Of a stretch of 64,000 nt of DNA, positions 19,559 to 42,053 are shown one piece after another. Made by a program: the position numbers and the translations under genes. Each line of letters begins with the position of its first letter. Position 1 is the stretch's first letter. The notes beneath the pieces are model-generated. The model worked only from the letters and a program-made list of their open reading frames with translations. It was not told the origin of the DNA and ran no database searches. Source of the stretch: Patescibacteria group bacterium (lineage in GTDB: Bacteria > Patescibacteriota > Patescibacteriia > Buchananbacterales > UBA6539); assembly GCA_028688055.1 (NCBI GenBank), contig JAQTYZ010000001.1, positions 114,910-178,909 of the forward strand. Direction: 5' to 3'.

Positions 19559-20070
19559 ATAAATATTTATTAAAATTTGCTAGCATTATATTTATCATAT
19601 TGTTTATTGCGACAATTAGTTATTTGATTTTTGAAAATTTTTCTTTTTTTAGTGCCCAAAAAATTGTGTTGTCAACTTCCGATCAACCGATGATGACGAA
19701 ACTAGGGCCAGCGGTGCGAGTAACTAATAACGACGGTGTCCAAAATATTTTAGCTGGTCCGGTCTATTTTGATTTGCGGTCAATGCCTTGGTTTACTCAG
19801 GCGACGGTTTATTTAACATTTAAGTCGGCGGGAATTAATTTAGAAAATATGGCTTACCAAACTGGCCCTGGTTTTCAATATCAGACCGTCGAACCATTAT
19901 TAGTTGAAGCTATTGGTGATGGTTGGACCAAGGCGACCTTTAGTTTTGAGATGTCAAAAATTTATCAAAAGCGAAATGTCCGGCGATTTCTAATTTCCGT
20001 ATCGCCGAGCGACGAAAATCATATTAAATCTCTTATCCTCAAGGAGCTAACTATTTATTTAAACAAATGA
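19555..20070 (+). CDS. Hypothetical membrane-anchored protein
   Basis: 171 aa with a single N-terminal TM helix; translationally coupled (4-nt overlap) to the upstream GT-C-like gene. Confidence 0.4.
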   Translation: MNKYLLKFASIIFIILFIATISYLIFENFSFFSAQKIVLSTSDQPMMTKLGPAVRVTNNDGVQNILAGPVYFDLRSMPWFTQATVYLTFKSAGINLENMAYQTGPGFQYQTVEPLLVEAIGDGWTKATFSFEMSKIYQKRNVRRFLISVSPSDENHIKSLILKELTIYLNK

Positions 20071-20270
20071 AATCATTTTTTTTAAAATGGGAATCGGACA
20101 GCATCCAGCGGCAGTTAAGCCGCGTCATTTTTCGTTTTAGTTTTGTTGCTTTCGTTTTTTTCAGCGCGGTTGATTTAGTCTGGCCGGGATTTGTCACAAA
20201 TTATTTTAATCCGTTTTGGCTGTTGCTTATTGCTATTATTAGCGGTATACTGGCGATTAATAAGAATTAA
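20067..20270 (+). CDS. Small two-TM membrane protein
   Basis: 67 aa, overlaps the upstream stop by 4 nt, hydrophobic. Confidence 0.3.
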   Translation: MKSFFLKWESDSIQRQLSRVIFRFSFVAFVFFSAVDLVWPGFVTNYFNPFWLLLIAIISGILAINKN

Positions 20271-20280
20271 TAAAAATACA

Positions 20281-20730
20281 ATGATTAATGGTGTCGTCAT
20301 AAAAAAAATCGCTAAATTTACCGACCACCGAGGTTGGCTGGCTGAAGCTTACCGAAACGACGAGACTGATTTTAAACCGGTAATGACCTATATCTCTGAA
20401 ACTAAATCGGGTGTTGTCCGTGGTCCGCATGAACACCAAGGCCAGTCAGATTTTTTTATTTTTATTGTCGGCCAATTCCGACTTTATCTGTGGGATAACC
20501 GTCAGGGCGCTGACAATTATCGCGTTTTAGAAACTTATGATGTCGGTGGAGACAATCCTTGCTCAGTCATTATTCCGCCAGGCGTGGTTCATGCCTATAA
20601 GTGTCTTTCGGAATCCGGCGGTATTACTATTAATTTACCTGATGCCCTCTACGCTGGGCCGGGCAAACAAGCCGCGGTTGACGAAATTCGTTGGGAAGTG
20701 ATGGCCGCTTCTCCGTTTATTGTAAGTTAG
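20281..20730 (+). CDS. dTDP-4-dehydrorhamnose 3,5-epimerase-like cupin (RmlC-like, short form)
   Basis: MINGVVIKKIAKFTDHRGWLAEAYR matches the RmlC N-terminus (G-V-x-I-x(5)-F-x-D-x-RG-x-F-x-E). The ORF track begins at 20191 inside the upstream gene; ATG 20281 matches the family start. Confidence 0.6.
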   Translation: MINGVVIKKIAKFTDHRGWLAEAYRNDETDFKPVMTYISETKSGVVRGPHEHQGQSDFFIFIVGQFRLYLWDNRQGADNYRVLETYDVGGDNPCSVIIPPGVVHAYKCLSESGGITINLPDALYAGPGKQAAVDEIRWEVMAASPFIVS

Positions 20731-20807
20731 AGGAGCTAATTTTAGATTCGACCGGGTGATTCTAAAACACTGAACGAAAATACCCCTTAACTTTAGAGGA
20801 TGGATTT

Positions 20808-22466
20808 ATGCTAACTGCAACTTGGCAACTGGCATCATTGCAATTGCTTTTTTATCTATTTTTAATTATTGGTTTAGCCGTCTATTTATTTTTTAGAAAA
20901 CCAATAGTTTTTGTTGGATTGATTTCAGGATTTTTTTCATTGGCGGCTTGCTTTATTTTTACTAAAGCTTTGTTGCCTTGGTGGGGCCTAAATGGTGATG
21001 AATTGTTTGTGTTTGCTTTTTTGGAAAAAGCAGCAGCCGGAAAATTTTTTGGTGATTTTTTTTATTCCAGTTTGCCGCCATTTTATCCACCCCTTTATTT
21101 TTGGTCGTTGGGCGGTTTGGCTCACTTATTGCATTTGTCAGCCATTCAGGCTGGATTTTTGGGTGTCATATTAGTTTTATTTAGCACACCATTATTAATT
21201 TATTTTTGGCTGGTTATTCGCGGTGAAAAAAATTTTTGGGCGTTGATTTTTTTGCCGTCTTTAATCTACGTTGTTAGTAGTTGGTCAGCCATTATTGTTA
21301 AACCGTACGAATTTGTTTCCGCCGTCTTGTTAGTTTTTTGGACTATTTTTTTGATTAAAGATATTGATGACCGACGGCTAAATAAAAAAAGCATATTTTT
21401 TTATGGTTTAACCGGAGGAATATTATTTTTAACTTTTTACTTTTGGTTTTTAGTCATCCTTTTAGCCCTCGCCATCTGTAAGTTAATGATAAAAACCGAT
21501 CTCAAATACTATTTGAAGAATTGGTTTTTCGTCGGGATAATAGTTTTTATTGTTAGTTTACCATTTACTTTGCCGTTGGCTATTTCATATTTAAATTTTG
21601 GGGCTGAGAATTGGCAGTCAGCTTGGTTTATCGAAGAATATCTAGATTTATATTTACCATTTTTTAGCTGGTCTGTTTTTGGCTTAGTTTCTTTAATTGG
21701 CTTGATTTCCTTAGGCTGGCTGAAAGATAAAATTGAAAGTAAGGTTTTGGGTAGTATTTTATTGGCTTGTTATGGCTGGCAAGGTATCAGTCTTTTAACA
21801 ATTTATTTTTGGGACGCTCCATTTTTACCCGCCAAGCCGTTTTTATTTTTAGGTGGCGCAACTTTATCAATTGCTGCGAGCTTTGGTTTAGCTGAGCTGT
21901 TTGAAAAAATTAAAAATAATAAATTAAAGTTTGGATTATTTGTTGTTGGCTTGGTGCTCTTTTCTTCGCAATCAATTTTTGGGCCACTTTTTTCACCAGA
22001 AGTTGCTTATCATTTAACTTTGATGAAGCAACCTTTGCGTGAAGAGTATTTGAATTTGAAGAATAATTTAGCACTGGTGGCAGATCTCAGGAGCTTAACG
22101 ATTCTTTCAAGCGGTGTACCGCAAATGTCAACGTTCTTTCCGCTTGACTATTATGTCAGTCATAATATTCACTTTTCTCATCCGGCGGCGAATTTTTCGA
22201 CGCGTTATTATTTTGTTCGAAATTTGTCGCAAGCGTCTGACGCTAAGAGTTTTTATCAAGATTTAAAAAATGCGCCCTTGGCCAGGGTTGATGCTTTGCT
22301 CTTGCTCAAAGGGCCCGGGTATTATCCAATTAATTTTTATGTTGACAATTACCCTTTGGGTGGTAAGGCGGTGGAAATCCGTATTCCCGAGCGCTTGATT
22401 GATACCCAATATTTTGTTAAAGTTTTTGAAGATAAGCAATTTGTATTTTTAAGACTTAAAGACTAA
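20808..22466 (+). CDS. Polytopic membrane protein, GT-C-fold glycosyltransferase-like
   Basis: 552 aa. About 13 TM helices and a C-terminal soluble domain; SD AGAGGA upstream. Confidence 0.4.
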   Translation: MLTATWQLASLQLLFYLFLIIGLAVYLFFRKPIVFVGLISGFFSLAACFIFTKALLPWWGLNGDELFVFAFLEKAAAGKFFGDFFYSSLPPFYPPLYFWSLGGLAHLLHLSAIQAGFLGVILVLFSTPLLIYFWLVIRGEKNFWALIFLPSLIYVVSSWSAIIVKPYEFVSAVLLVFWTIFLIKDIDDRRLNKKSIFFYGLTGGILFLTFYFWFLVILLALAICKLMIKTDLKYYLKNWFFVGIIVFIVSLPFTLPLAISYLNFGAENWQSAWFIEEYLDLYLPFFSWSVFGLVSLIGLISLGWLKDKIESKVLGSILLACYGWQGISLLTIYFWDAPFLPAKPFLFLGGATLSIAASFGLAELFEKIKNNKLKFGLFVVGLVLFSSQSIFGPLFSPEVAYHLTLMKQPLREEYLNLKNNLALVADLRSLTILSSGVPQMSTFFPLDYYVSHNIHFSHPAANFSTRYYFVRNLSQASDAKSFYQDLKNAPLARVDALLLLKGPGYYPINFYVDNYPLGGKAVEIRIPERLIDTQYFVKVFEDKQFVFLRLKD

Positions 22467-30723: not shown

Positions 30724-32190
30724 ATGGCCAAAATCGACATTAATCCCGCTGATAAATTATTTAAATGGGGGCCGATTGATGGCAAATTGATCTATCCCGA
30801 TTTTTTTAATCAAACTTTTGTCCGGTTTCAAAAAGCCGGTTTTGTCAGTTGGCCGGATGTTTTGTGGTTGATGCAAAAAGAAAAGATGCTCTGCGTGGTG
30901 GATAATGATAATTTGTATGAATGTGGCCGGCAAAATTTTCAAAAAACAGCCCTTGATTCAAAAAAATTTAACGCCGTTTTTCGTGATTGGCAAAAGAATT
31001 TGCGGCAATGGTTACGATTTCAAAAAACGCTGTCGGCCGCAAAGCTTAGACACGCCAGTGATCAAGATTTAGCTAATATTTTTCAACAATGGGTTGAATT
31101 GTATCTTAAGTTTTGGACATTGGGGCTGTTACCGGAAGTGGCCAACTGGGGCGGTGAAATAATTTTAAATGAAAGATTAAAAAAGCTGCCATTAAAATCA
31201 GAACATGATTTTATTTTTTTGTTGGAAAAATTATCCGCGCCCGAAAAATTATCATTTTATCGGGAGGCGGAATTGGGCCTGCTAAAATTAAAAAAGCAAA
31301 TTCACGCCAGGGATTTTGAAAAAAAATTAGAGCTTCATCAACAAAAGTTTTTTTGGATTTTAAACAGTTATCATCATACAAAAATTTTATCGCTACAATA
31401 TTTTCGCCGCGAATTGCGGGCGATTGGGCCTAATTATGAGCGCAAATTGTCTGAGCTAATGAAATATACTAGCCTAGTTAAGCGCGAAAAGCAAAAGCTG
31501 ATTCGACAATATCATATTGACCCGCTAACGGCCAAAGTGGCCCAAAGGCTCGCTTTTTCGATTTGGTGGCAGGATTTACGGAAATATTACATCTTTTTAG
31601 CCAACCATTATGTCGATTTGTTCCTTCAGGAATTCTCGCGGCGACTTGGGGTTGATTTTGATGATTTGCATTATTATGGTGTCGAAGAGATGATGCGGTT
31701 GGCCAAAAGCCACAAAAAGCTTGCCAAATCAGAAATTAACCACCGGAAAAATAATTTGGTTGTCCACTACTCCCAAAATGCTAATTCATTGGAGTACATT
31801 TCTGGCAGAAAAGCCGCGGACATTATTAAAAAATATACGGCTATAAAAGTTGAGAAGAATTTGACCACTTTAAGTGGTACCGTGGTTAGTAAGGGGCAAA
31901 AGGTGCAAGCTCTGGTAACAGTGATTTTATCAGCTAAAGATTTTACTAAGATGAGGCCTGGTGATATTTTGGTGACAGCGATGACATCACCCGATTACAT
32001 TATGGTAATAAAGAAAGCGGCCGCCATTGTCACCGATGAAGGCGGGTTAACTAGTCACGCGGCCATTGTGTCACGGGAACTTGGTATTCCCTGTATTGTT
32101 GGAACAAAAGTAGCAACACGAGTTTTGAAAGATGGTGATTTAGTTGAGGTCGATACGATCAAAGGGGTGGTTAAAAAAATTGCTAAATGA
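30724..32190 (+). CDS. PEP-utilising-enzyme mobile (swivel phosphohistidine) domain protein, paralog 1: ~390-aa helical N-terminal region + C-terminal swivel domain
   Basis: C-terminus [50 protein letters not shown] is the PpsA/PPDK/enzyme-I phosphohistidine swivel motif (GGxTSHAAIxxRELGIP). The protein has neither an ATP-grasp domain nor a PEP-binding TIM barrel. Confidence 0.7.
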
Positions 32191-32193
32191 AGT

Positions 32194-33654
32194 ATGTCTA
32201 AAACATGTGTCAATTGGAGACTCTATGAGCGTAATAATATTTATCCGCAGAGTCTTTCGCCGTATCTTGAATTGGTTAATTTGTCACAGAGTAAAAAGTA
32301 TCCTTATATTGCTAATCATCACGAAGTTTTGACTTTTCAAGATGGTTATCTTTGGTGGGCGCGTGATGCCGACGCCATTGAAAAAGACGCTCGCAGATGG
32401 GTTCGAGATTGGCTTTATTCAAAAAGCGAATTAAAAGATCTTTTAATACTTTTTGATTGCCTAGGGCATAGTAATCAAAATATTTTGCCATCTTTAGCAA
32501 AGATAAAAGTCAAAAATATTGGTAGTGATGAATTATATGGTTTATATGAAAAAACAAAAAATATCTTTTTAAGTGGAGTTATTTTTGATGAATACGCCAT
32601 TGATCTTTTTGATGATTTTTCTGGTAATATTTTTTCCGAAAAAATTCGTGGCTATACCAAGGGACTAATTAGCCAAGAAGATATTAGACAATTATTAAGG
32701 CCAGCGTCGATTACCAAAAGTCTTCAATATCGAAAAAAACTTTTAGAGTTTTCGTTTGTAAAAAATGTTCTCCCTTCTGAGTTACAAAAAATTGCCAATC
32801 AGTTTTGTTGGATTGCGATGGGTTGGGATGGAAGCAACGAATTAACTGTTGCTAAACTAAAAAGTGACCTAGCTAAGCTGAAAAAAGTAAGTATCAATGA
32901 TCGTACCAAGGAACTCAAAAAAATTAAGAACTTTGGCCAATCGGTACGCCTTGAAAGAAAAAGGATATTGAAAAAATATAAGTTGCCTCAAAAAAAATTG
33001 AAACCGCTTTTTTACCTTTTGGATATTTTTGTTGTTTTCCACGACCGGCGCAAAGAGCATCAAATGAACTGTAATAAAATTATTTTTCCGGTTTTAAAAG
33101 AAATTGCCAAAAGGTTTAAAGTGGATTACGGTGACCTGCTGTTTTATTTTAATTCCGACATCAAAAATTTATGTTTGGACAGAAAAAAATTAAGCGCTTC
33201 AGAAATTAAAAAAAGGAAAAACGGGATTACCTGGGTAATCAGTGACAGAAAAGCTAGAATTTTTTTAGGTCTGAGGGCAAAAAAAGTATTAAATATGTTA
33301 GTTCTTTCAAGCTTTAAAGCAGATAATGTTTTGGAAATTTCAGGCGAAACAGCTTCGGGCGGAAAAGTTAACGGTAAAGTTTTTGTAACTAAGAGTTCTA
33401 AACTGGCGCTTAAAAATTTCAAAAAAGGTGATATTTTAGTAACGACGATGACAACGGTGGATTATTTGCCGGTGATGAAATTAGCCAGTGCTATTGTAAC
33501 TGATGATGGGGGATTAACCTGTCACGCGGCGATTATTTCAAGGGAGTTAGGTATTCCTTGTGTGGTTGCCACTAAAATTGCCACTCAGATTTTTAAAACC
33601 GGTGATAGGGTTGAGGTTGATGCTGATCAGGGGGTAATTAAAAAGTTAACATAA
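32194..33654 (+). CDS. PEP-utilising swivel-domain protein, paralog 2
   Basis: C-terminus [50 protein letters not shown]; N-terminal region diverged from paralog 1; 3-nt gap from the upstream gene. Confidence 0.7.
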   Translation: MSKTCVNWRLYERNNIYPQSLSPYLELVNLSQSKKYPYIANHHEVLTFQDGYLWWARDADAIEKDARRWVRDWLYSKSELKDLLILFDCLGHSNQNILPSLAKIKVKNIGSDELYGLYEKTKNIFLSGVIFDEYAIDLFDDFSGNIFSEKIRGYTKGLISQEDIRQLLRPASITKSLQYRKKLLEFSFVKNVLPSELQKIANQFCWIAMGWDGSNELTVAKLKSDLAKLKKVSINDRTKELKKIKNFGQSVRLERKRILKKYKLPQKKLKPLFYLLDIFVVFHDRRKEHQMNCNKIIFPVLKEIAKRFKVDYGDLLFYFNSDIKNLCLDRKKLSASEIKKRKNGITWVISDRKARIFLGLRAKKVLNMLVLSSFKADNVLEISGETASGGKVNGKVFVTKSSKLALKNFKKGDILVTTMTTVDYLPVMKLASAIVTDDGGLTCHAAIISRELGIPCVVATKIATQIFKTGDRVEVDADQGVIKKLT

Positions 33655-33657
33655 CTT

Positions 33658-35244
33658 ATGACGTCGATGCAGTTTAAAAAGGGTTTAATTAAAAAAGACC
33701 TAGAAAAATTAAAGCAGAAAGAATGGTATCACCAAAGGTTTGATGGTTGTCCCAACCTTATTTATTTAATTGGTCAGATGGAGCTGGAGCCAGAATCGAG
33801 AAAAGAAGTTGGTGGAGAATTCATCAATCATTTGATAATTTTTAATAATGATCGGGTTGATTGGTATATTGATTTAGCTGACATTAATCGTGTCTCCAAT
33901 ATTTTTTTTAAAAAAAGTTATCGCCAGTCCTTGGGAATCGGAAAAAGGATTATGAAGAAATGGGATAATAATAAAGTAGCTTTTCATAAAAAGTGCTTGG
34001 AATTGGATAAAATAAATTTAACTAAGCTTACCAATAATGAATTGAAAAATTTATATGAAGATTTTTTCAGGACGTATTTTGGTTGGACCAGCATGAGTTC
34101 TGTGATTGATGGTTTTGCCTTGGGGAGTGATCAATTTATTGAAACAGAGTTAAAAAAATTTTTAAGTAGCCAAAAAATTGCCACTGGTCAAGGAATATTT
34201 TTTTCAACATTGACGGCGCCGACAAACCAATCATTTATCAATGAGGCCGAAATCTCATTATTGAAAGTAGCTCTAAAAATTTATCAGAATCAGAAATTAA
34301 GAAAAATTTTTATTGCCAACAATGTCAATTCAATTTATAAAAAAATTAATCATTTTCCGGTTGAATATCAGGCCCTGCGAAAACATCAACATAATTTTTT
34401 TTGGGGTAAAAACAATTATGTTGATAGCAATATTTTAAGTATTTCTTTTTTTATTAAGGAAATTAAACAATTATTGAAAAACAATATTGACGTATCAGCT
34501 CAGATCAAAAGAATTGAAACGGTGCCAATCAAAAATAAAATTGATAAACAAAAATTAATAAAAAAATTAAAGTTGCCCAAGTTTCTTCTTAATCTAATCG
34601 AAATATCAGAAACATTTACCTACTGGCAAGATGAGCGAAAAAAATATACTTTTTTGGCAACTTATTATGGTTCAACTTTTTTAGCTGAAATCGGCAGACG
34701 TTTTGACTACCCCTTGGTTGAAATGAAATATTTATTTTTTTCGGAAATTATAACATTATTTACTGGCCAGGGGCATTATGTCTCTAGGCAAGAAGCGCAG
34801 CAGCGTAGAAAATTTAGTTTTCATTATGATCATCGGCAAGCTTATGAGATAATCACCGGTGCGGCGGCTCGTGAGGTTTCGAAAGCCATCTTTAAAGTTG
34901 GTGTTAAAAAAAGTATTAATGATTTCCGTGGGTTAAGTGCCTCGAGTGGTAAGGTGCGAGGAATTGTTAAAATCGTCACCAGCGCTCACGAAATAAATAA
35001 AGTTAATCGGGGAGATATTTTAGTAGCCGTAATGACTCGGCCAGATTATATTGTAGGTATGAAAAAAGCCGCGGCCATAATTACTAATGAGGGCGGCGTT
35101 ACTTGTCATGCCGCTATTGTCGCTAGAGAGTTAGGGATTCCGTGTGTCATTGGCACTAAAATTGCCACCGAAGTTTTAAGCGATGGTGATTTAGTGGATG
35201 TTAATGGTAATCATGGGGTGGTGACTATTATAAAAAGAAAATAA
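33658..35244 (+). CDS. PEP-utilising swivel-domain protein, paralog 3
   Basis: C-terminus GDILVAVMTRPDYIVGMKKAAAIITNEGGVTCHAAIVARELGIPCVIGTK; 528 aa; 3-nt gap from the upstream gene. Confidence 0.7.
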   Translation: MTSMQFKKGLIKKDLEKLKQKEWYHQRFDGCPNLIYLIGQMELEPESRKEVGGEFINHLIIFNNDRVDWYIDLADINRVSNIFFKKSYRQSLGIGKRIMKKWDNNKVAFHKKCLELDKINLTKLTNNELKNLYEDFFRTYFGWTSMSSVIDGFALGSDQFIETELKKFLSSQKIATGQGIFFSTLTAPTNQSFINEAEISLLKVALKIYQNQKLRKIFIANNVNSIYKKINHFPVEYQALRKHQHNFFWGKNNYVDSNILSISFFIKEIKQLLKNNIDVSAQIKRIETVPIKNKIDKQKLIKKLKLPKFLLNLIEISETFTYWQDERKKYTFLATYYGSTFLAEIGRRFDYPLVEMKYLFFSEIITLFTGQGHYVSRQEAQQRRKFSFHYDHRQAYEIITGAAAREVSKAIFKVGVKKSINDFRGLSASSGKVRGIVKIVTSAHEINKVNRGDILVAVMTRPDYIVGMKKAAAIITNEGGVTCHAAIVARELGIPCVIGTKIATEVLSDGDLVDVNGNHGVVTIIKRK

Positions 35245-35261
35245 TTAATTGCAAAAAAAAT

Positions 35262-36038
35262 ATGGAGAGTTTACATAATCGTGATTCTATTATTGCTCGT
35301 CACGCCGACAAGGGGTCATGGCAGATAAGTGAAGAATCGTTGACACAAATTTTTCCAGCCAAACAAGCAGCCTTGGTGGTGGAAGTTTTGCAAAATGACT
35401 TTCCGGAAATGATTGAAGCCGGTGAAACGCCCCTTACCCTTGAAGGAATTCAGCGTAGCTTAAAATTGGCTGAAAATCTTTATGATAAGCTTCCAGCGGA
35501 ATCAATTTTAGTGACACTTGATAGTGGTAAGGACAGGGCTAAATTATGTCGTCATCTGGTGACTGAACGTTTAAGCCAGCTGGAAGGAAAAGAAAAAATA
35601 ATTGATATGCTGGAAATTGATGAAAAGGAAATTGTGAGTTTATTGGCCGATTCAAATCCTGATACCTGGGCTCCTTATGAACTGATGATGAAAAATGATG
35701 GCCTTGATGAAGGTGAGGCCATATTTCGGTGGTTAAATGATATGAATGATCCAAGCATTGATGTGGCGCCTGAAAAATCACCCAAAGAATCAGCAGAAAG
35801 ATATCGACAATTAGTTAAGCTGATCCATGGCAGCATAACACAGGCGCAGGATGGCAATTCGCATCAACGGCAATCGCCAGTAATTTTGTTTGGCGTCGGT
35901 CATTCTGGGTCGTTAGGGCAGGCACTTTATGAAGATCGCGGGGGCATAACAGCAGAAGAGGTGCCGCATTTTTGTGAGCAATTTCAATTTAATAATGATG
36001 GAAAAATTGTTGCTTCAGAAAAAGTTGATTTAAATTGA
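35262..36038 (+). CDS. Histidine-phosphatase superfamily protein (phosphoglycerate-mutase/SixA-like fold)
   Basis: N-terminal RHADKG (RHG-type catalytic motif), PLTLEGIQRSLKLAENL (LTxxGxxQAxxLG pattern) and C-terminal ILFGVGHSGSLGQAL (second catalytic His). Confidence 0.55.
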   Translation: MESLHNRDSIIARHADKGSWQISEESLTQIFPAKQAALVVEVLQNDFPEMIEAGETPLTLEGIQRSLKLAENLYDKLPAESILVTLDSGKDRAKLCRHLVTERLSQLEGKEKIIDMLEIDEKEIVSLLADSNPDTWAPYELMMKNDGLDEGEAIFRWLNDMNDPSIDVAPEKSPKESAERYRQLVKLIHGSITQAQDGNSHQRQSPVILFGVGHSGSLGQALYEDRGGITAEEVPHFCEQFQFNNDGKIVASEKVDLN

Positions 36039-36218
36039 GTAATTGTCAGATGTTTGTCGAAGCGGTAAAATCATTAAGGACGAAATTTCCTGATTTTTCC
36101 TATCATTTGTATCACATTTTAAATGGTAATTCAGACATAAGCGACAAAGGGGACTACTAGGAAATTGGAAGTTTGTATGACTTTTTAGCTAACGAGATGA
36201 GTATTAATACCTAATGAA

Positions 36219-37184
36219 ATGACTAAATATATTTTACCTTTTTTTAAAATTTCTAAAAAAGATGCAGCAATCGCCGGCGGTAAGGGCGCGTCGCTGGGCG
36301 AAATGACCCAGACAGGTATTCCGGTGCCATCGGGGTTTGTGATTGTTGCTGACGCGTATAATTATTTTATTGATAGCGTTGCGAAAAATGAAGTCGCCGA
36401 AGTCGGGCTAGACATTAAAGCCCAGCTGAAAGAGGTTAATTTTAAAGACACTAATTCTATTGATAAAGCGTCGAACGTTATTCGTGATATTTTGCACGAT
36501 ACCAAAATTCCCAGTGACTTAGCTGATCAAATTAAAAATGAATTTAAGAAATTAAATACAAAATTTGTTGCCGTGCGCTCATCGGCCACGGCCGAAGATT
36601 CATCTATTGCTTCATGGGCCGGGGAGCTGGAGACATATTTGAATACGACTGAAAAAACATTACTCCAAAATGTCCGGCGCTGTTGGTCGTCGCTTTTTAC
36701 GCCGCGGGCGATTTTTTATCGCTATGAAAAAAAGATGTCAGATCAACACGTGGCGGTAGCGGTGGTGGTGCAAAAAATGGTGGAGTCAGAAATTTCCGGC
36801 ATTACTTTTACTGTTCATCCGGTGACCAAAGACAAAAATCAAATGATTATTGAGGCTGGGTTTGGGTTAGGCGAAGCCATTGTGTCCGGCCAAATTACGC
36901 CGGACAGTTATGTCGTTGGTAAAAAAGATTTTAGTATTTTTGATATTAATGTCGCCGAACAAAAGAAAATGTTGGTTCGCAAAGGCGCGGGCGGCGATAA
37001 TGTTTGGAAAACCATTGCTAAATCAAAACAGGAGAGCCAAAAGTTGACGGGCAGACAAATTATCGAGCTGGCAAAAATTTGTGCAAATATCGAGAAACAT
37101 TACAAAAAGCCGCAAGATATTGAGTGGGCATTTGCTAAAGGAAAATTTTATATCACTCAATCTCGGCCGATCACCACTTTGTAG
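36219..37184 (+). CDS. PEP synthase/pyruvate-phosphate-dikinase N-terminal nucleotide-binding (ATP-grasp, PPDK_N) domain protein
   Basis: GGKGASLGEMTQTGIPVPSGFVI, VRSSATAEDSSIASWAGELETYLN and DIEWAFAKGKFYITQSRPITTL align motif-by-motif with the N-terminal domain of E. coli PpsA. The ORF ends at TAG 37182-37184, in the same frame as the next gene. Confidence 0.8.
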   Translation: MTKYILPFFKISKKDAAIAGGKGASLGEMTQTGIPVPSGFVIVADAYNYFIDSVAKNEVAEVGLDIKAQLKEVNFKDTNSIDKASNVIRDILHDTKIPSDLADQIKNEFKKLNTKFVAVRSSATAEDSSIASWAGELETYLNTTEKTLLQNVRRCWSSLFTPRAIFYRYEKKMSDQHVAVAVVVQKMVESEISGITFTVHPVTKDKNQMIIEAGFGLGEAIVSGQITPDSYVVGKKDFSIFDINVAEQKKMLVRKGAGGDNVWKTIAKSKQESQKLTGRQIIELAKICANIEKHYKKPQDIEWAFAKGKFYITQSRPITTL

Positions 37185-37217
37185 CCTAAATTTTTTATTA
37201 TTAATTTTTTAAAAATT

Positions 37218-38705
37218 ATGGTAGGAGCAGTAATGAGGTCGGGAAAATGGCGTATTAAGCCGTCGGGTCAGTTGCCAATTTTTTTGAGATTTATGATTAA
37301 TTCTAGTTTTGATAAAGCAATTTCGAATAAAGCGGGGATTAAACATAATATTGCTAATCGTGTTTATCTTAATCACATGATGTATTGGCCAGCTTCAGAG
37401 TATGACGCTTTTGAGAAGGAGATAGTTGACCATTTAAAAAAACAAGACGGTTGGTTGGAAAAATATTGCTATCGTGAGCTAAAAAAATCAGAGCATTTAT
37501 ATAACCTAGGTTTAAAATTAGAGAAAGTAGATTGGGCTAAAAAAACTAATGCAGAGATGGAGAAAATTTTAGACAATCTGCTTGGTTTATATCGCGAATT
37601 AGCTTGCCCTTGGTATGCCCAATATCCAATTGATATTTACTATGAAAGTGTTATTGAAGAAAAACTTTTAACATTAATCCGAGCCGATCATCATGATTTT
37701 AGAAAATTTGTTTTAATTTTTACTGATCCGAAAGAAATGACTGATGTTGCCAAAGAGCGGTGGGAATTGATGAAATTAGCTAAAAAACTTAAACAGAATG
37801 GTGAGAAATTGGTTAATTTGTCTCAGATAGCAGAAGCTAGCATAAAAAAGCATCTGTCTATGTTTGCGTATATTAATCGCGGTTTGGCAACCAGTAAACC
37901 ATATACCCGAAAAGATATAATTTCTAGAATTAAGGAAGCATGGGCAGCCAAGGAAGGTTTAGACGAACTAATTAGTTATAGCTCACCGAAAAAAATCATT
38001 GAAGATTATAAATGGGCTTTAAACCAAGTTAAGCCAGACGGTATCTTTAAAAAAATTATTGATCAGGCTCGTTTGCATTCTTACACCAGAAATCGTCGAG
38101 TAGAAGCACTTTTTTTGGCTGACTATGGAGCCAGTTTTATGTATCATGAAATTGCTAAAAGGAGTAAATTTAATCCCAATTGGATAATGGAAGTAAGTAT
38201 TCCGGAAATGTATGAAGCGTTGCATGGACAAAAATTGCCAAATAAGGTTGAAATGCAAAGACGCCTTAAAAACTATGCCATGATTGTCAGAAATGCTAAT
38301 ACTAGACTTATCACCGATCCGGTTGAAATAAAAAAAATGGAAAAAAAATATATAGTAAAAAATGATCAAGTTAATCAGATTCAAGGTCGAGTAGCCTGTT
38401 TGGGCGGAGTCATACGCGGCCGAGCAAAAATTTGTCTGGATAAATCAGATATTGGTAAAGTTAAGAGAGGTGATGTGTTAGTAGCGCAGTTTACCACGCC
38501 TGATTTTGTACCAGCGATGGAACGCGCGGTGGCTATTGTGGCTGATCAAGGCGGTTTGTCATCGCATGCCGCTATCGTTTCTCGTGAGTTAGGTGTTCCT
38601 TGCGTGATGGCAACTGAGAATGGTACAAGGGTGATTAAGGATAATGATCTAATAGAAGTTAATGCTCGCACCGGTGTTATCAAAATAATAAAGCGAGCCA
38701 AATGA
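37218..38705 (+). CDS. PEP-utilising swivel-domain protein, paralog 4 (in frame with the upstream ATP-grasp gene; SD-like AGGAG 5 nt before the second ATG at 37233)
   Basis: C-terminus [50 protein letters not shown]. It lies 33 nt downstream of the PPDK_N gene in the same reading frame. Confidence 0.7.
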   Translation: MVGAVMRSGKWRIKPSGQLPIFLRFMINSSFDKAISNKAGIKHNIANRVYLNHMMYWPASEYDAFEKEIVDHLKKQDGWLEKYCYRELKKSEHLYNLGLKLEKVDWAKKTNAEMEKILDNLLGLYRELACPWYAQYPIDIYYESVIEEKLLTLIRADHHDFRKFVLIFTDPKEMTDVAKERWELMKLAKKLKQNGEKLVNLSQIAEASIKKHLSMFAYINRGLATSKPYTRKDIISRIKEAWAAKEGLDELISYSSPKKIIEDYKWALNQVKPDGIFKKIIDQARLHSYTRNRRVEALFLADYGASFMYHEIAKRSKFNPNWIMEVSIPEMYEALHGQKLPNKVEMQRRLKNYAMIVRNANTRLITDPVEIKKMEKKYIVKNDQVNQIQGRVACLGGVIRGRAKICLDKSDIGKVKRGDVLVAQFTTPDFVPAMERAVAIVADQGGLSSHAAIVSRELGVPCVMATENGTRVIKDNDLIEVNARTGVIKIIKRAK

Positions 38706-39304
38706 TAAAAGCAGTATTTTTTGACTCCGGTAGAGTCTTGGTTCAGGAAGATTATGTGTCTTGTATTGCTGAATACGAAGAAAAGCTTGGTATCAAAAAG
38801 GGAAAATTATATGAGTCTGTCCATGATAGGCTATACTGGACTGATTTTACTCTAGGTAAAATCACGGAAGAAAATTATTTCAATCAGCTGGCTAATGATT
38901 TTGTGGGGAGTTTAGACATCGAAAAGCTTAAAGAAGTAATTTATGATAATTTTATTCTTAATACTGAGTTAGCGGATTATCTTATAACTTTGAAAGATAG
39001 ATTTACATTGGGGATAATTTCTAATAATCCCAAAGAATGGTTTGATTATTGTTCAAAGATATTTGACTGGCAAGATATTTTTGACGTCAAGGCGGTTTCA
39101 GGTTATCTACATATTCGTAAACCTGATATAAGAATATTTCAGCAGGCCTTAGAAATTGCTAAAATAAATGGCAATGAAGCAATTTACGTTGACGACAGGC
39201 CTGATCGGGTGGACGGTGCGAAGGCTCTGGGTATGAAAATTATAATTTATAGCAATGTTGAAAAATTTAAAATTGATTTACATAATATTATAAATAATAA
39301 ATAA
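38702..39304 (+). CDS. HAD-superfamily phosphatase, YihX-like subfamily (DxGxV motif I)
   Basis: AVFFDSGRVLVQED matches E. coli YihX motif I (FDLGNVIV). Motif IV YVDDRPDRVDGAKALGMKII. 200 aa; overlaps the upstream stop by 4 nt. Confidence 0.65.
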   Translation: MIKAVFFDSGRVLVQEDYVSCIAEYEEKLGIKKGKLYESVHDRLYWTDFTLGKITEENYFNQLANDFVGSLDIEKLKEVIYDNFILNTELADYLITLKDRFTLGIISNNPKEWFDYCSKIFDWQDIFDVKAVSGYLHIRKPDIRIFQQALEIAKINGNEAIYVDDRPDRVDGAKALGMKIIIYSNVEKFKIDLHNIINNK

Positions 39305-39308
39305 ATTT

Positions 39309-40280
39309 ATGATGACAAGGCTAAGTCATGAGACAGGATATGGGTCGGAACAAGAAAAAAAACCAGAAACTCAAGTTGACCTTTATTTAATGAGGCATTC
39401 AAATCGTTTCGCTGGTAAAGGTGAATGGGAAGATCCGAATACTGGGGAAAAGATTGTCTTTGATGATACGGAAAATCTAACCCCAGAAGGCAAACTGCGC
39501 GCGCGAGAATTTGGTCAGTTGATAGGCCATGGTCATGACCACATTGTTAGTATTGGCAGTATGGAGGCCAGGGCAGCTGAGACTGGTGCGGATATTGAGG
39601 CGGGAGCCGAAGAGCCAATCAATATTAGAGATCAAGACGGTGGTCGAGTCGTTAATCAGGCCAGGGGAATAACTTATAGAGAATTTGGGTCAGAGACTCA
39701 AGGTGTCTTAAAAAACATTAAGCCAATGATTAATGAGCAGGCTGGTCAGCATCCTCAATATGGCATTTTGCCTCCTGAAGAAAGGGCATCGGTTCGGCAA
39801 GAAGCCCAAGAGGTAGGTTTAAGAGAGGCCATGAAAGATTCTGGAATTGTTGAAGAAGCGGCTGAAGGTGTAGCTTATAATTTATATACTTTACGAGAAA
39901 TAGCTAAAGATGTTAAGCCAGATTTAAAACCAGCCTTACCCTTGGTTAGTCACGGTATTTATAATGAATCTTTTTTAAAGAAAGCGTTGATAATTGAAAA
40001 TAGTGATGGTACTCACCAAGCCGGCTTTGAAGACGTTGATGAAATCGGCGGATTTTTTGCGCCAGCTGAGGCTTTTAAGATCAGAATAATACGGGACGCG
40101 AATGGCCACGAACGGTATGAGTGCGAATTTACCGACCCCAAACGACAAGAATTATTCAGAGATAAGCAGTTGTCAGTTGATTGGACAATAATTGAAGAAT
40201 TATTTCATCGGTATGATGAAAGATTAGCTCAGCGAGAGGGTCGCCAACCACATTGGCCTAAAGTTGAGAAAGCTAATTAA
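39309..40280 (+). CDS. Histidine-phosphatase superfamily protein (second paralog)
   Basis: LYLMRHSNR (RHG-type motif), LTPEGKLRAREFGQLIG and C-terminal LPLVSHGIYNESF (SHG motif). Confidence 0.6.
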   Translation: MMTRLSHETGYGSEQEKKPETQVDLYLMRHSNRFAGKGEWEDPNTGEKIVFDDTENLTPEGKLRAREFGQLIGHGHDHIVSIGSMEARAAETGADIEAGAEEPINIRDQDGGRVVNQARGITYREFGSETQGVLKNIKPMINEQAGQHPQYGILPPEERASVRQEAQEVGLREAMKDSGIVEEAAEGVAYNLYTLREIAKDVKPDLKPALPLVSHGIYNESFLKKALIIENSDGTHQAGFEDVDEIGGFFAPAEAFKIRIIRDANGHERYECEFTDPKRQELFRDKQLSVDWTIIEELFHRYDERLAQREGRQPHWPKVEKAN

Positions 40281-40321
40281 TCTAGTTTTATTCTAATTAC
40301 CACTAAGTAATTTTGTCGTAA

Positions 40322-41767
40322 ATGAAAAGAAATAAAAGCTTTAAACCGAAATGGGATGTTGATGAAGCCGAAGCCGTATTTTGGATTTGTCCGGAAGCGG
40401 CTTGGGCCATGACAGTGGGTATGCGAAAAATTTATGGCTTTGGGTTTAATCGAAATTTGGTAATTTTGGAGAAAAATAAGCCTTTTAAATGGTGCACTTT
40501 AGTTGAAGACAATGTCATCGTTGGCAATAAATGTTTTAATAAATTTAAAAATAAAAAATTTCGTAATAAAATTAAACAAGGTTTAGCTAAGGTAAATTTA
40601 AAGCTGGAGCGAAAAATATTAAAATATCGGTCGCAAAGTCCGGCCGCAATGTCGGTTAGTGCCTTGTTTAGTTATTTAGATTTTTTTACGGAATGCTATC
40701 AAGAAATGTTTAGTTATGGTTTTTTTGCCGAAGCTTTTGACTATGTGCTGCCCCAAATTTTTGAGAAAGAGTTCAAAAAATATAAACTTTCCCGTGATGA
40801 TTTCTCTGATTTATCGACTATCCCTGATGTCAGCTATTTAAATTTAGAAACCCAAAAGTTGATTAGATTAGCGATTAAAAAGAGCAGCGGTCAGAAAATC
40901 GGCAATGATTTAGACGATCATTTTAAAAAATATGAATGGCTTGCAACCGGTCATAATGGTAAGAAAATTATTACCATTAATTATTTTTTAGCAAGAATTG
41001 GTGAATTAATCAGGCAGCATCAGAATTTATCTAAAGAGCTTAAACGTCTGAGAGATTTTAAGATTAATTTGAAAAAACGGAAAAGCCAAATCATAAAAAA
41101 ATATGATTTTGTTAAAGGAGCTTTACAATTAATCAATATTATTGATGACATCGGGCCGTTGCGTGACCGGAGAAAAGAAATTTTTGTTAAGTCAATCTTT
41201 TATGCCGATGATGTCCGCGACGAACTGGCAAAAAGATTCGGCTATCATTTATCAGACCTGCAATTTTTTACCAGCCAGGAACTCATATTATTGAGCAAGG
41301 GAGAAAAACTTGATCGAGCTGAGTTAAAAAGGAGAAAAGAATTTATAATTTTAGATGTTGATTATCAAAAGCATTTATTCAAAGTTTATAGTGGCAAAAG
41401 TGTTTCGAAATTAATTCCTAAAGAATTCAAAAAAATTCATGACCAATTAAATGAGCTTACCGGGACGGTGGCTTCAAGTGGTAAAGTGTCCGGAGAAGTT
41501 AAAGTTATCTTCGGTGAAAGCGGCTTTCACCGAATGAGCCAAGGCAATATTTTAGTTACTGGCATGACCCGGCCTGAAATGTTGCCAATAATGAAAATGG
41601 CGGCGGCAATTATCACTGATGAAGGCGGCCTGACTTGCCATGCTGCTATTGTTTCCAGAGAATTAAACATCCCTTGTATTGTCGGCACCAAAATTGCCAC
41701 CAAAGTCTTGAAAGACGGCGATAAGGTAGTAGTCAACGCGACTAACGGCACTATCAAAATAATTTAG
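40322..41767 (+). CDS. PEP-utilising swivel-domain protein, paralog 5
   Basis: C-terminus [50 protein letters not shown]; 481 aa. Confidence 0.7.
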   Translation: MKRNKSFKPKWDVDEAEAVFWICPEAAWAMTVGMRKIYGFGFNRNLVILEKNKPFKWCTLVEDNVIVGNKCFNKFKNKKFRNKIKQGLAKVNLKLERKILKYRSQSPAAMSVSALFSYLDFFTECYQEMFSYGFFAEAFDYVLPQIFEKEFKKYKLSRDDFSDLSTIPDVSYLNLETQKLIRLAIKKSSGQKIGNDLDDHFKKYEWLATGHNGKKIITINYFLARIGELIRQHQNLSKELKRLRDFKINLKKRKSQIIKKYDFVKGALQLINIIDDIGPLRDRRKEIFVKSIFYADDVRDELAKRFGYHLSDLQFFTSQELILLSKGEKLDRAELKRRKEFIILDVDYQKHLFKVYSGKSVSKLIPKEFKKIHDQLNELTGTVASSGKVSGEVKVIFGESGFHRMSQGNILVTGMTRPEMLPIMKMAAAIITDEGGLTCHAAIVSRELNIPCIVGTKIATKVLKDGDKVVVNATNGTIKII

Positions 41768-41774
41768 TTTTTTT

Positions 41775-42053
41775 ATGAAGAGGGTCACGCTAATAATTAG
41801 CGGCGAAGTTCAGGCTGTTGGATTTAGGACAGCGGCCGTAAGGGAAGCGAACAAGCTTGGATTGACCGGGTATGTGAAAAATTTACCTGCTGGTTCAGTC
41901 GAGGTAGTTGCTGAGGGCGAGGAGGGCAACTTGAATAATTTTATCATTTGGTGTTATAATGGTGTTGGACTGGCAACAGTTTCCAATATAAAAACCAGCT
42001 GGACGGAGGCGACTGGAGTTTTTTCTAATTTTGTGATAGTATTTGAGAGTTAA
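41775..42053 (+). CDS. Acylphosphatase
   Basis: 92 aa; ISGEVQAVGFRTAA (V-x-G-x-V-Q-G-V-x-F-R signature) and GYVKNLPAGSVEVVAEGEE (G-x-V-x-N-x-x-D-G-x-V motif). Confidence 0.75.
   Translation: MKRVTLIISGEVQAVGFRTAAVREANKLGLTGYVKNLPAGSVEVVAEGEEGNLNNFIIWCYNGVGLATVSNIKTSWTEATGVFSNFVIVFES

Follow-up and report, generated by a model that had tools for sequence, protein, structure and literature searches.

Gene organization of the cluster

The stretch of DNA analysed here (the window; 64,000 nt) belongs to a tiny-genome Patescibacteria bacterium and contains, between positions 30724 and 42053, a cluster of ten ORFs encoding five acceptor subunits (S1-S5), an ATP-grasp subunit (AG), and four phosphatase-type proteins (HP1, HAD, HP2, and ACYP). 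The ORF check placed all ten on the plus strand, exactly where an earlier note on this DNA had put them, with gaps of 3, 3, 17, 180, 33, -4, 4, 41, and 7 nt between successive ORFs. The GC content was even throughout the region, housekeeping genes (MurA, S41 protease, L9, and CTP synthase) were found on both flanks, and the same flanking genes were present in a relative whose proteins share 53-69% identity. The cluster is vertically inherited and, because of this inheritance and its location among housekeeping genes, is not an acquired island, a word used in the earlier note that proved misleading. In the Pfam search, the PEP/pyruvate TIM barrel was absent from all cluster proteins, and no DNA-binding or output domains were detected in them.

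S1 (30724-32190; 488 aa), comprising an N-domain of the rifampin phosphotransferase (RPH) type and a C-terminal swivel domain, is followed by the acceptor subunits S2 (32194-33654; 486 aa), which begins 3 nt past S1 in the same frame as judged from reading frame and stop codons, and S3 (33658-35244; 528 aa). The conserved core paralog S4 (37218-38705; 495 aa) shares its last 4 nt with the HAD gene, and S5 (40322-41767; 481 aa) is a lineage-specific paralog. The only Pfam family in these proteins of approximately 480-530 aa was PF00391, at the C-terminus, with E-values of 4e-23 to 5e-27 (S1, residues 411-481, 5e-27; S2, 5e-25; S3, 4e-26; S5, 8e-26), in agreement with their earlier description as swivel proteins having neither an ATP-grasp domain nor a TIM barrel. 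The catalytic histidine and the N-domain motif, likewise on the plus strand, were located at His445 (nt 32056-32058) and DLRKY (nt 31573-31587) in S1, His444 (nt 33523-33525) and DRRKE (nt 33043-33057) in S2, His484 (nt 35107-35109) and DERKK (nt 34630-34644) in S3, His450 (nt 38565-38567) and RNRRVE (nt 38091-38105) in S4, and His440 (nt 41639-41641) and DRRKE (nt 41165-41179) in S5.

HP1 (35262-36038; 258 aa) has a predicted histidine-phosphatase fold with R13-H14, R65, R92, and H214 in GHSG, and HP2 (39309-40280; 323 aa) is a divergent member of the histidine-phosphatase superfamily with R29-H30, R33, R88, and SHG at residue 214. Neither had a direct match in Pfam or NCBIfam, so the histidine-phosphatase calls needed further tests. 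They were supported by a single line of evidence each: for HP1, a predicted model that resembles RosC, PhoE, and phosphoserine phosphatases no less closely than SixA; for HP2, a family profile whose RHxxR segment matched 3r7a, PhoE, dPGM, and TIGAR in the PDB (E 3e-5 to 3e-4), with 3 of 19 orthologs reaching PF00300 by themselves. HAD (38702-39304; 200 aa) is a HAD-IA (variant 3) hydrolase with the nucleophile D8 in FFDSG and DDR at 164-166 (PF13419, HAD_2, E 2.5e-14; TIGR01509, 40.6 bits, above the 29.4 cutoff). It had been called a YihX-like HAD phosphatase; the HAD assignment stands. Scores against the YihX and nucleotidase models fell far under their cutoffs. ACYP (41775-42053; 92 aa) is an acylphosphatase, as previously proposed (PF00708 E 5e-23; VQAVGFR at residue 12 and VKN at residue 34), which ends the cluster immediately upstream of the gene for ribosomal protein L9. 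A 60% identical ortholog occupies the same position in a sister genome (locus L035, 12484-12756), and among the related loci ACYP was seen only there.

The 180-nt spacing between HP1 and AG is occupied by a pseudogene remnant (36032-36196, plus strand). It preserves the final ~55 codons of 'HAD2', a family of ~210-aa proteins, and carries an in-frame TAG at a position that is Trp in the family (tblastn 42% identity, E 1.6e-10). Intact copies of HAD2 occur in 17 related loci; the family had no match in Pfam or the PDB, and hhalign gave a probability of 0.6% for its relationship to the HAD family of the cluster.

Homology of the ATP-grasp and acceptor subunits

The single AG gene (36219-37184, plus strand) encodes a 321-aa stand-alone PpsA/RPH-type ATP-grasp (nucleotide-binding) subunit, and the earlier reading of it as PpsA-type was upheld by PF01326 across residues 18-320 (E 9e-95). 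[quoted passage not shown] It also matched HpeI (9GOJ, E 2e-49), an experimentally characterised stand-alone ATP-grasp subunit (PMC12167813). The 120 closest relatives of AG were all stand-alone proteins of 258-369 aa (nearly all 310-340 aa) containing PF01326 only.

The swivel domains of S1-S5 had been described as nearly identical, but their measured mutual identity was 45-60%. Their motif, GGxT[SC]HAAIVSRE, is PpsA-like, and their top sequence matches were PEP synthases. The N-regions share 20-26% identity, and most pairs were significant (E 7e-17 to 2e-8), with the N-region of S4 standing apart (E 0.005-0.02, rising to 4.1 with S2). In the predicted model of S4 the swivel domain has low confidence (pLDDT 29-66).

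A profile of 119 S sequences aligned to RPH-Lm residues 442-866 with an E-value of 3e-36, whereas PEP synthase and PPDK matched it over the swivel only; the E-value for PEP synthase 8a8e was lower (2e-53), but the RPH match was longer. The NCBIfam PRK08296 models, which may represent the PpsA/HpeH type, matched S1-S5 in the swivel region only, and the N-domains aligned to the long PRK06241/PigC models (S3 residues 101-526 to PRK06241.2-2 positions 459-891; S3 residues 110-524 to PigC positions 464-881). The D-x-R-K motif of the family, in which S4 has N and V in place of D and K, falls on RPH Y665-R666-E667-Y-P-K670 with a register uncertain by ~3 residues; the R666A and E667A substitutions abolish rifampin phosphorylation by RPH (PMC4844700). 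Judging from these alignments, the N-terminal regions of S1-S5 are homologous to the RPH domain that binds rifampin and are not PEP-synthase fragments, and together with AG they give the RPH-like architecture that the earlier note had recognized. The N-domain family comprises 4152 representatives at 50% identity, the best 150 of which are mostly 450-530 aa long.

Recurrence in related Patescibacteria

The synteny comparison suggested earlier revealed the arrangement at 28 independent related Patescibacteria loci, a recurrence that places it far beyond chance. The near-constant core is S4-HAD-HP2, in which HAD directly follows S4; HAD was present in 22 related loci and HP2 in 23. HP1 is an accessory gene outside this core. 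Orthologs of S4 are 59-78% identical and spread over many candidate phyla. S3 had orthologs in 21 of 27 loci (14 strong) and S1 reciprocal-best-hit orthologs in 13 of 27 (11 strong); strong orthologs of S2 occurred in 3 loci only and of S5 in none of the fetched loci. S1, S2, and especially S5 are lineage-specific. Many paralogs across the loci are so as well: grouping them at an identity of at least 40% gave 59 groups. Related clusters also encode an SbnI/SerK-like serine kinase (E 2e-28), MtxX/phosphate-acyltransferase-like proteins, and NUDIX and HD genes.

AG was present in 17 of the 28 related loci. With the window included, each of the 18 AG-bearing loci contained exactly one AG and 4-10 complete S paralogs (median 5.5, maximum 10). 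The catalytic histidine was retained in 136/136 complete paralogs and throughout the units of the fusion proteins, and 51 of 69 adjacent S-S pairs overlapped or lay no more than 10 nt apart. Natural fusions comprised an S-S-S-AG-S protein (one 2309-aa ORF) and an S-S-S protein (one 1500-aa ORF), both free of internal stops, an S4::HAD protein in locus L032, and an S3-like::HAD2 protein.

Proposed function and comparison with known systems

Taken together, the domain identities, RPH and HpeI homology, catalytic residues, one-to-many ratio, synteny, and fusions indicate that the product of this region is probably an RPH/HpeHI-family dikinase system for small molecules, with a split, one-to-many organization. 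The single AG would bind ATP and dock transiently with the C-terminal swivel of each of S1-S5, leading to phosphorylation of the catalytic histidine. The swivel would then swing back to its own RPH-type helical N-domain, where the bound molecule would receive the phosphoryl group, with the net reaction ATP + X + H2O -> AMP + Pi + X-P. Given N-domain identities of 20-26%, a separate acceptor is expected for each subunit. HAD, HP1, HP2, and ACYP would serve as associated phosphohydrolases acting on either the phosphorylated products or the phospho-His proteins. We infer trans-phosphorylation of all paralogs by AG, the dikinase stoichiometry, distinct substrates, and the phosphatase roles. Adjacency by itself is no proof that AG serves all five paralogs; the one-to-many ratio is hard-wired in the S-S-S-AG-S fusion, which, with the conserved ratio and the HpeI match, favours the earlier idea of one AG charging a swivel family in trans. 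Similarly, the S4::HAD fusion supports the proposed link to phosphatases. Each transfer by a dikinase consumes two ATP equivalents, an odd expense for energy-poor fermenters, and because the cluster has no modifying enzymes between kinases and phosphatases, the two acting on a shared substrate would form a futile cycle unless regulated or separated in time.

As to the substrates, we favour metabolic or scavenging kinases within this dikinase system, at somewhat less than even odds: host-derived metabolites would be phosphorylated and thereby trapped inside the cell or fed to salvage pathways, of the kind that reduced genomes lack, and the phosphatases would release or recycle the compounds. 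The conservation of S4 and S3 (the latter kept in 14-21 loci) across Patescibacteria makes common metabolites their probable substrates. The housekeeping neighbours, the even GC content, and the syntenic distant relative fit this, as do the other small-metabolite phosphoryl enzymes of related clusters and the proposal by the HpeHI authors that low-KM dikinases scavenge by phosphorylation (PMC12167813). Against it stand the high ATP-to-AMP cost, the many lineage-specific paralogs, and the lack of a transporter gene within the cluster of the window. The earlier note had instead raised xenobiotics or antibiotics, and a battery in which each paralog inactivates another toxic compound, as RPH does with rifamycins, would suit the RPH-like fold and catalytic segment, the fast diversification of the variable paralogs, the 'rph-like' matches counted in CPR resistome surveys, and the zearalenone, flavonoids, and phenolics reported as substrates of other family members. 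However, S scores against the RPH equivalog models were 66-69 bits with a cutoff of 999, which gives no grounds for expecting a rifamycin substrate, and the RPH authors themselves note that the family consists mostly of proteins other than rifampin enzymes (PMC4844700). Moreover, the core paralogs are conserved across deep lineages and vertically inherited among housekeeping genes, unlike typical resistance genes, and the phosphatases would reverse the inactivation. We therefore regard the battery as unlikely and consider conserved metabolites more probable substrates than antibiotics.

A phosphorelay or regulatory system appears somewhat less likely still. In it, the S proteins would carry phospho-His or act as sensors, with helical N-domains that bind a ligand or a partner protein but accept no phosphate, and HP1 and HP2 would be SixA-like phosphohistidine phosphatases that reset them. 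The swivels are indeed nearer to PEP synthase than to RPH by E-value, and a haloarchaeal PPS-like protein, PspR, has been reported as a regulator. Nevertheless, the whole family keeps the acceptor-site motif that aligns with RPH R666/E667/K670, output domains were not detected in the Pfam search, and the HP1 model is as close to metabolite phosphatases as to SixA, or closer. The database names ('PEP-utilizing enzyme', 'pyruvate, water dikinase', 'PEP/pyruvate-binding domain-containing protein') would suit decayed ppsA copies, a reading with next to no probability. It is refuted by the intact ORFs, the RPH-type N-domains, the universal catalytic histidine, the orthologs conserved over 28 loci, and the stand-alone relatives of AG; the HAD2 remnant is the sole decayed element.

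Among known systems, PpsA and pyruvate phosphate dikinase have ATP-grasp and swivel His domains homologous to those of the cluster, which differs in lacking the TIM-barrel domain and in having an acceptor domain of a different, helical fold. RPH-Lm (5FBS/5FBT/5HV1) has the same three modules and, presumably, the same chemistry, but in a single 867-aa chain, whereas the modules here are on separate proteins; structural alignment gave ~12% identity over the acceptor domain, and the S proteins did not align to RPH over their N-terminal ~100 residues. The prodiginine-condensing enzymes PigC, RedH, and HapC belong to the same long PRK06241-type family, but they are single-chain proteins in which phosphorylation drives condensation, and the cluster has no pyrrole pathway genes. 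The bacterial PTS, in which Enzyme I supplies many sugar-specific Enzymes II, also joins one energy module to several substrate modules via phospho-His, with an EI swivel homologous to that of the cluster; the donor here would be ATP instead of PEP, HPr and membrane permease components are lacking, and the resemblance is an organisational analogy only, not family membership.

The closest likeness is to HpeHI (Rhodococcus), CreHI (Corynebacterium), and the phenylphosphate synthase PpsAB (Thauera, Aromatoleum), two-component small-molecule dikinases shown biochemically to act in trans and to require both components, with AMP as a product and HpeH H581Q inactive (PMC12167813). They too combine a stand-alone ATP-grasp subunit with an RPH-like acceptor subunit bearing a C-terminal swivel His, and RPH is the sole solved structure spanning most of the acceptor subunit in both cases. 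Their acceptor subunits lie in phenolics catabolic operons of free-living bacteria, whereas the present cluster, in reduced-genome Patescibacteria, has no catabolic enzymes and includes HAD, histidine-phosphatase, and acylphosphatase genes. In these pathways, the Cre pathway for example, the phosphate is taken off later, which provides a precedent for the clustering of kinases and phosphatases. On whether the arrangement had been described, a point left open earlier, no paper on this cluster was found; the split architecture is known from these systems (PMC12167813), and since split RPH-type dikinases already work in trans, the mechanism is not new. However, each of them pairs one ATP-grasp subunit with one acceptor subunit, and the one-to-many expansion, 1:5 here and up to 1:10 in relatives, appears to be new.

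Gene organization and genomic setting of the cluster

The ten open reading frames listed in the earlier note were recovered at their exact positions on the + strand between 30724 and 42053. Five of them encode the paralogous putative acceptor subunits S1 (30724-32190), S2 (32194-33654), S3 (33658-35244), S4 (37218-38705), and S5 (40322-41767), and the others encode the histidine-phosphatase-like proteins HP1 (35262-36038) and HP2 (39309-40280), a stand-alone 321-aa ATP-grasp protein, AG (36219-37184), a hydrolase, HAD (38702-39304), and an acylphosphatase, ACYP (41775-42053). Pfam analysis agreed with the proposed domain content. PF00391 (PEP-utilizers mobile domain) was the sole Pfam domain in S1-S5, at the C-terminus of each, and AG, the single PpsA-type ATP-grasp protein, likewise had no Pfam domain other than PF01326 (PPDK_N; residues 18-320, E 9e-95). 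HAD matched HAD_2 (PF13419) and PF00702, and ACYP matched PF00708; the PEP/pyruvate TIM barrel (PF02896) was present in none of the ten cluster proteins.

The intergenic gaps were between -4 and 41 nt, except for one of 180 nt between HP1 and AG. This gap contains a pseudogene remnant (36032-36196, + strand) of HAD2, a ~210-aa family. Only the C-terminal ~55 codons are left, and a TAG interrupts their frame at the position of the family Trp (YWEIG changed to Y-stop-EIG). Intact members occur in 17 related loci, and in the window the 5' remainder of the HAD2 gene seems to have given way to HP1. HAD2 showed no Pfam match and no PDB profile match. Its assignment to the HAD superfamily was not adopted, as HAD-like motifs were seen by eye only and hhalign against the cluster HAD family gave a probability of 0.6%.

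S1, S2, and S3 (30724-35244) lie in one common frame, with the junctions TGA agt ATG and TAA ctt ATG and no obvious ribosome-binding site at either. The common frame was rejected as a special feature because adjacent S genes shared a frame in 17 of 69 pairs across loci, below the chance expectation of one-third; in 51 of these 69 pairs the neighbors overlapped or were <=10 nt apart. The promoter and terminator scan gave results at chance level. No Rfam or tRNA match was found anywhere in the window, and there was thus no riboswitch hint to the substrate. A known defence system was also rejected, since PADLOC gave no matches.

The GC content was even across the cluster region, which is flanked by genes for a MurA-type enzyme, an S41 protease, ribosomal protein L9, and CTP synthase. 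Because the matching flanks and the terminal acylphosphatase are kept in a relative with 53-69% identical proteins, the cluster is vertically inherited and is not an acquired island. Farther upstream in the window, envelope genes (4339-9078 and 17987-22466) encode an 827-aa Wzy_C O-antigen-ligase-like protein with TPR repeats, a 751-aa subtilase with FG-GAP repeats, and PMT_2-like and AftA_N-like glycosyltransferases. A 698-aa ORF (15850-17946, - strand), also upstream of the cluster, had no Pfam match.

Properties of the ATP-grasp, acceptor, and phosphatase-type proteins

AG aligned end to end with residues 2-316 of the rifampin phosphotransferase RPH-Lm (E 4e-66). By this alignment, K22, R120, and T139 of AG correspond to RPH K22, R117, and T136, residues shown to be important for the first half-reaction (PMC4844700). 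AG also matched HpeI (crystal structure 9GOJ, E 2e-49), which is the separate ATP-grasp component in a biochemically characterized two-component dikinase (PMC12167813). The score against the equivalog models NF041857/NF000283 was 296 bits (cutoff 999). Since the 120 closest relatives (66-81% identity) were all 258-369 aa in length, nearly all 310-340 aa, and contained PF01326 only, AG is best regarded as a stable stand-alone lineage and not as a gene fragment.

The S proteins combine a conserved C-terminus with diverged N-termini, as the earlier note had described; however, the swivel domains are not nearly identical, with pairwise identities of 45-60%. The N-terminal regions are 20-26% identical, S4 being the most divergent, and most pairs were significantly similar (E 7e-17 to 2e-8). 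The swivel loop GGL[TS][SC]H, with the catalytic His of the pattern T/S-x-x-G-G-x-x-x-H, was found in all five proteins, and this His was kept in 136 of 136 complete swivel paralogs from related loci.

In NCBIfam, a long PRK06241-type model covered S3 residues 101-526 with its positions 459-891, and PigC covered residues 110-524 with positions 464-881. A search of the PDB with a single S protein returned the swivel match only, and the acceptor domain of RPH was reached only by a profile built on 119 paralogs, taken from related loci as well as the window. This profile gave a single unbroken alignment over RPH-Lm 442-866 (E 3e-36), whereas its match to PEP synthases, PPDK, pyruvate kinase, and PTS Enzyme I was confined to the swivel. 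The results indicate that the acceptor domain of the S proteins is homologous to the rifampin-binding domain of RPH and replaces the PEP/pyruvate TIM barrel. The claim that the N-terminal regions are RPH-like is therefore upheld by the coverage of RPH-Lm 442-866 as against the swivel only of PEP synthase, and the alternative, in which the S genes are decayed ppsA copies, is refuted. All cluster scores against the PpsA equivalog models in NCBIfam were under the cutoffs, and the S proteins scored 60-69 bits against the rifamycin-phosphotransferase equivalogs NF041857/NF000283 (cutoff 999).

The sole family-wide motif of the N-terminal region is D-x-R-K, in which S1 R286 is at least 90% conserved. 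It falls on the RPH segment Y665-R666-E667-Y-P-K670 in a register uncertain by about 3 residues; the alignment pairs the motif D with E667 and the K with K670, and the near-invariant Arg lies 3 positions off R666. The sequence of S4 at this site is R-N-R-R-V-E. Substitution of Ala for Arg666 or Glu667, both of which touch the transferred phosphate in RPH, abolishes rifampin phosphorylation (PMC4844700).

HP1 and HP2 had no match in Pfam or NCBIfam, and HP1 had none in the PDB by phmmer. Both contain the features of the histidine phosphatase superfamily, namely an RHG-type Arg-His, a second Arg, a C-terminal His, and an alpha/beta fold. A profile of 19 HP2 orthologs matched the dPGM family, PhoE, and TIGAR over the RHxxR segment (E 3e-5 to 3e-4), and three orthologs of this set individually reached PF00300. 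The proposal of two histidine-phosphatase-superfamily genes is thus supported, for HP1 by its predicted fold and for HP2 by a weak profile match. The hhalign probability between HP1 and the HP2 family was 1%, and therefore the two are not close paralogs. The HAD superfamily and PF00708 assignments also held. HAD scored above the TIGR01509 cutoff, its residues D8, S107, K140, and D164 (motifs I-IV) were invariant among 18 orthologs, and Gly occupies its Asp+2 position, as is presumably the case in YihX. ACYP scored 81.6 bits against PF00708 (cutoff 22.5) and holds VQAVGFR, with the catalytic Arg of VxGxVQxVxFR, and VKN, with the catalytic Asn. These phosphatase-fold proteins may hydrolyze the products or, like SixA, phospho-His proteins.

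Recurrence in related loci and natural fusions

The N-region profile matched mostly 480-500-aa Patescibacteria proteins with PF00391 only. An exhaustive search for the N-domain family gave 4152 representatives at 50% identity (E <=1e-3), of which 2682 were at <=1e-10; the best 150 of the 4152 were mostly 450-530 aa. S4, whose orthologs are 59-78% identical, served as a well-conserved query, with which 27 loci were fetched from reference genomes; with 2 others obtained by exact look-up, deduplication left 28. The arrangement recurs across related Patescibacteria, as the earlier note's synteny check required: S4 adjoins HAD in 22 loci, HP2 is adjacent or near in 23, and exactly one AG was found in 17 (18 with the window), most other loci being cut by contig or locus ends. 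Loci with AG contain up to 10 complete swivel paralogs (median 5.5), the ratio in the window being 1:5.

Reciprocal-best-hit orthologs were detected for S4 in 24 of the 27 loci (24 strong), for S3 in 21 (14 strong), for S1 in 13 (11 strong), for S2 in 11 (3 strong), and for S5 in 6 (none strong). The 136 S proteins formed 59 groups at >=40% identity, and closely related genomes have matching S sets (L020, L027, L028, and L031). The system consists of a conserved core of AG, S4, HAD, HP2, and often S3, with a lineage-specific periphery. In L003 (14869-21503), L011, L014, and L015, AG is directly followed by type-IV-secretion-like genes (PrgI, TraC-like, P-loop TraG, and T4SS pilin). The S4-HAD contigs of L006, L009, L015, and L018 were deposited as Ignavibacterium, Lysobacteraceae, or Gammaproteobacteria MAGs; they are probably mis-binned because their gene content is Patescibacteria-like.

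A sister cluster on a 922-kb contig (L035) is without S4-HAD-HP2. In their place, between the swivel genes and AG, are five genes (5070-8758) encoding a 198-aa multi-pass membrane protein, an intact HAD2, an SbnI/SerK-like homolog of free L-serine kinase (E 2e-28), and two MtxX/phosphate-acyltransferase-like paralogs (E 2e-11). Other related loci contain extra NUDIX, HD, and cytidylyltransferase-like genes. None of the serine-kinase-like, MtxX-like, NUDIX, HD, cytidylyltransferase-like, and 198-aa membrane protein families was found in the window.

Natural fusions were also detected. A single ORF of 2309 aa has the order S-S-S-AG-S (L034, 2012-8941; GCA_053531335.1), and another of 1500 aa is S-S-S (L033, 594-5096). 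Both are free of internal stops under translation table 11, and the idea that long multi-unit database proteins arise as read-through artefacts of gene calling was rejected on this basis. The catalytic His is present in every unit, two of which have the variant loop GGTGITSHPA. In L032 (3402-5492), S4 and HAD are fused in a 696-aa protein (P0065), and genes for another HAD, HP2, and AG come next. An S3-like protein is fused to HAD2 in L008 (16669-18876); as HAD2 keeps its own Met there, loss of a stop codon or an error in sequencing could also explain this fusion. Among the computational results, the S-S-S-AG-S fusion argues most strongly that one ATP-grasp domain may work with several acceptor modules.

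Proposed function and comparison with known dikinases

The best-supported reading, in which we have good confidence, is that the cluster encodes a one-to-many split dikinase. AG would use ATP to phosphorylate the swivel His in all of the S proteins, which would then each pass the phosphoryl group on to an acceptor of their own in the RPH-type domain. We favor conserved metabolites as the acceptors, at least for S4 and S3, because these two proteins are conserved, the cluster is inherited vertically, and related clusters contain enzymes of small-metabolite phosphoryl chemistry. Antibiotic inactivation by the variable paralogs is possible, but the scores of the S proteins and AG against the rifamycin phosphotransferase equivalogs fall far under the cutoff of 999. 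Beyond the split dikinase itself, a wider role is conceivable, if rather doubtful, in which a PTS-like hub-and-spoke system uses the single ATP-grasp energizer and 5-10 lineage-specific acceptor modules to capture and activate host-derived metabolites, with the HAD and histidine-phosphatase partners controlling release. If true, it would replace many canonical kinases missing from these reduced genomes. In this view, the S-S-S-AG-S fusion hints that the separate proteins may come together as a single multi-subunit machine.

Much of bacterial diversity belongs to the Patescibacteria (CPR), in which the majority of conserved gene clusters have no assigned function. Patescibacteria genomes are typically ~1 Mb in size, of which the cluster takes up roughly 1%, being ~11 kb long in the window and longer in relatives. 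In databases, the S proteins are named "PEP-utilizing enzyme" or "phosphoenolpyruvate synthase/pyruvate phosphate dikinase", and AG is named "PEP/pyruvate-binding domain-containing protein" or "pyruvate, water dikinase". As these proteins are without the PEP/pyruvate domain, automated metabolic reconstructions could wrongly infer a PEP synthase, an annotation that recognition of a one-to-many RPH/HpeHI-type system corrects. With one ATP-grasp, a handful of acceptors, and three phosphatases, the cluster offers a testable way into small-molecule handling by these symbionts, and the search for substrates would most obviously begin with the conserved S4-HAD-HP2 triad.

The split RPH-type dikinase is an already known kind of enzyme. 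A subfamily of two-component small-molecule dikinases has been established with HpeHI, CreHI, and the phenylphosphate synthase PpsAB, which need both components and yield AMP (PMC12167813); the in-trans mechanism put forward in the earlier note is therefore established family chemistry. HpeH H581Q is inactive, HpeH alone exchanges phosphate between phospho-product and substrate, and no stable complex was seen (PMC12167813). According to the HpeHI authors, HpeH behaves like the S profile, in that RPH alone among solved structures matches most of the acceptor subunit (PMC12167813). No description of the present arrangement was found in the searchable CPR/Patescibacteria literature, which holds few of the subscription-journal papers; in a CPR resistome paper, rph-like matches were only tallied. 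The organization with one ATP-grasp, 5-10 acceptor paralogs, and a conserved S4-HAD-HP2 core thus appears to be undescribed, as do the multi-module fusions and the very large family, mostly confined to Patescibacteria.

As in the HpeHI type, the ATP-grasp and acceptor/swivel parts are on separate polypeptides here, and unlike PEP synthase and PPDK, the cluster has no C-terminal TIM barrel (PF02896). The known two-component systems are 1:1 pairs in aromatic catabolism (PMC12167813), with one ATP-grasp per acceptor subunit, whereas the ratio is 1:5 here and up to 1:10 in relatives. The proposed hub-and-spoke reading would share with the PTS the logic of one energizer and many acceptor modules. 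The newly defined two-component dikinase subfamily thereby gains a new organizational form.
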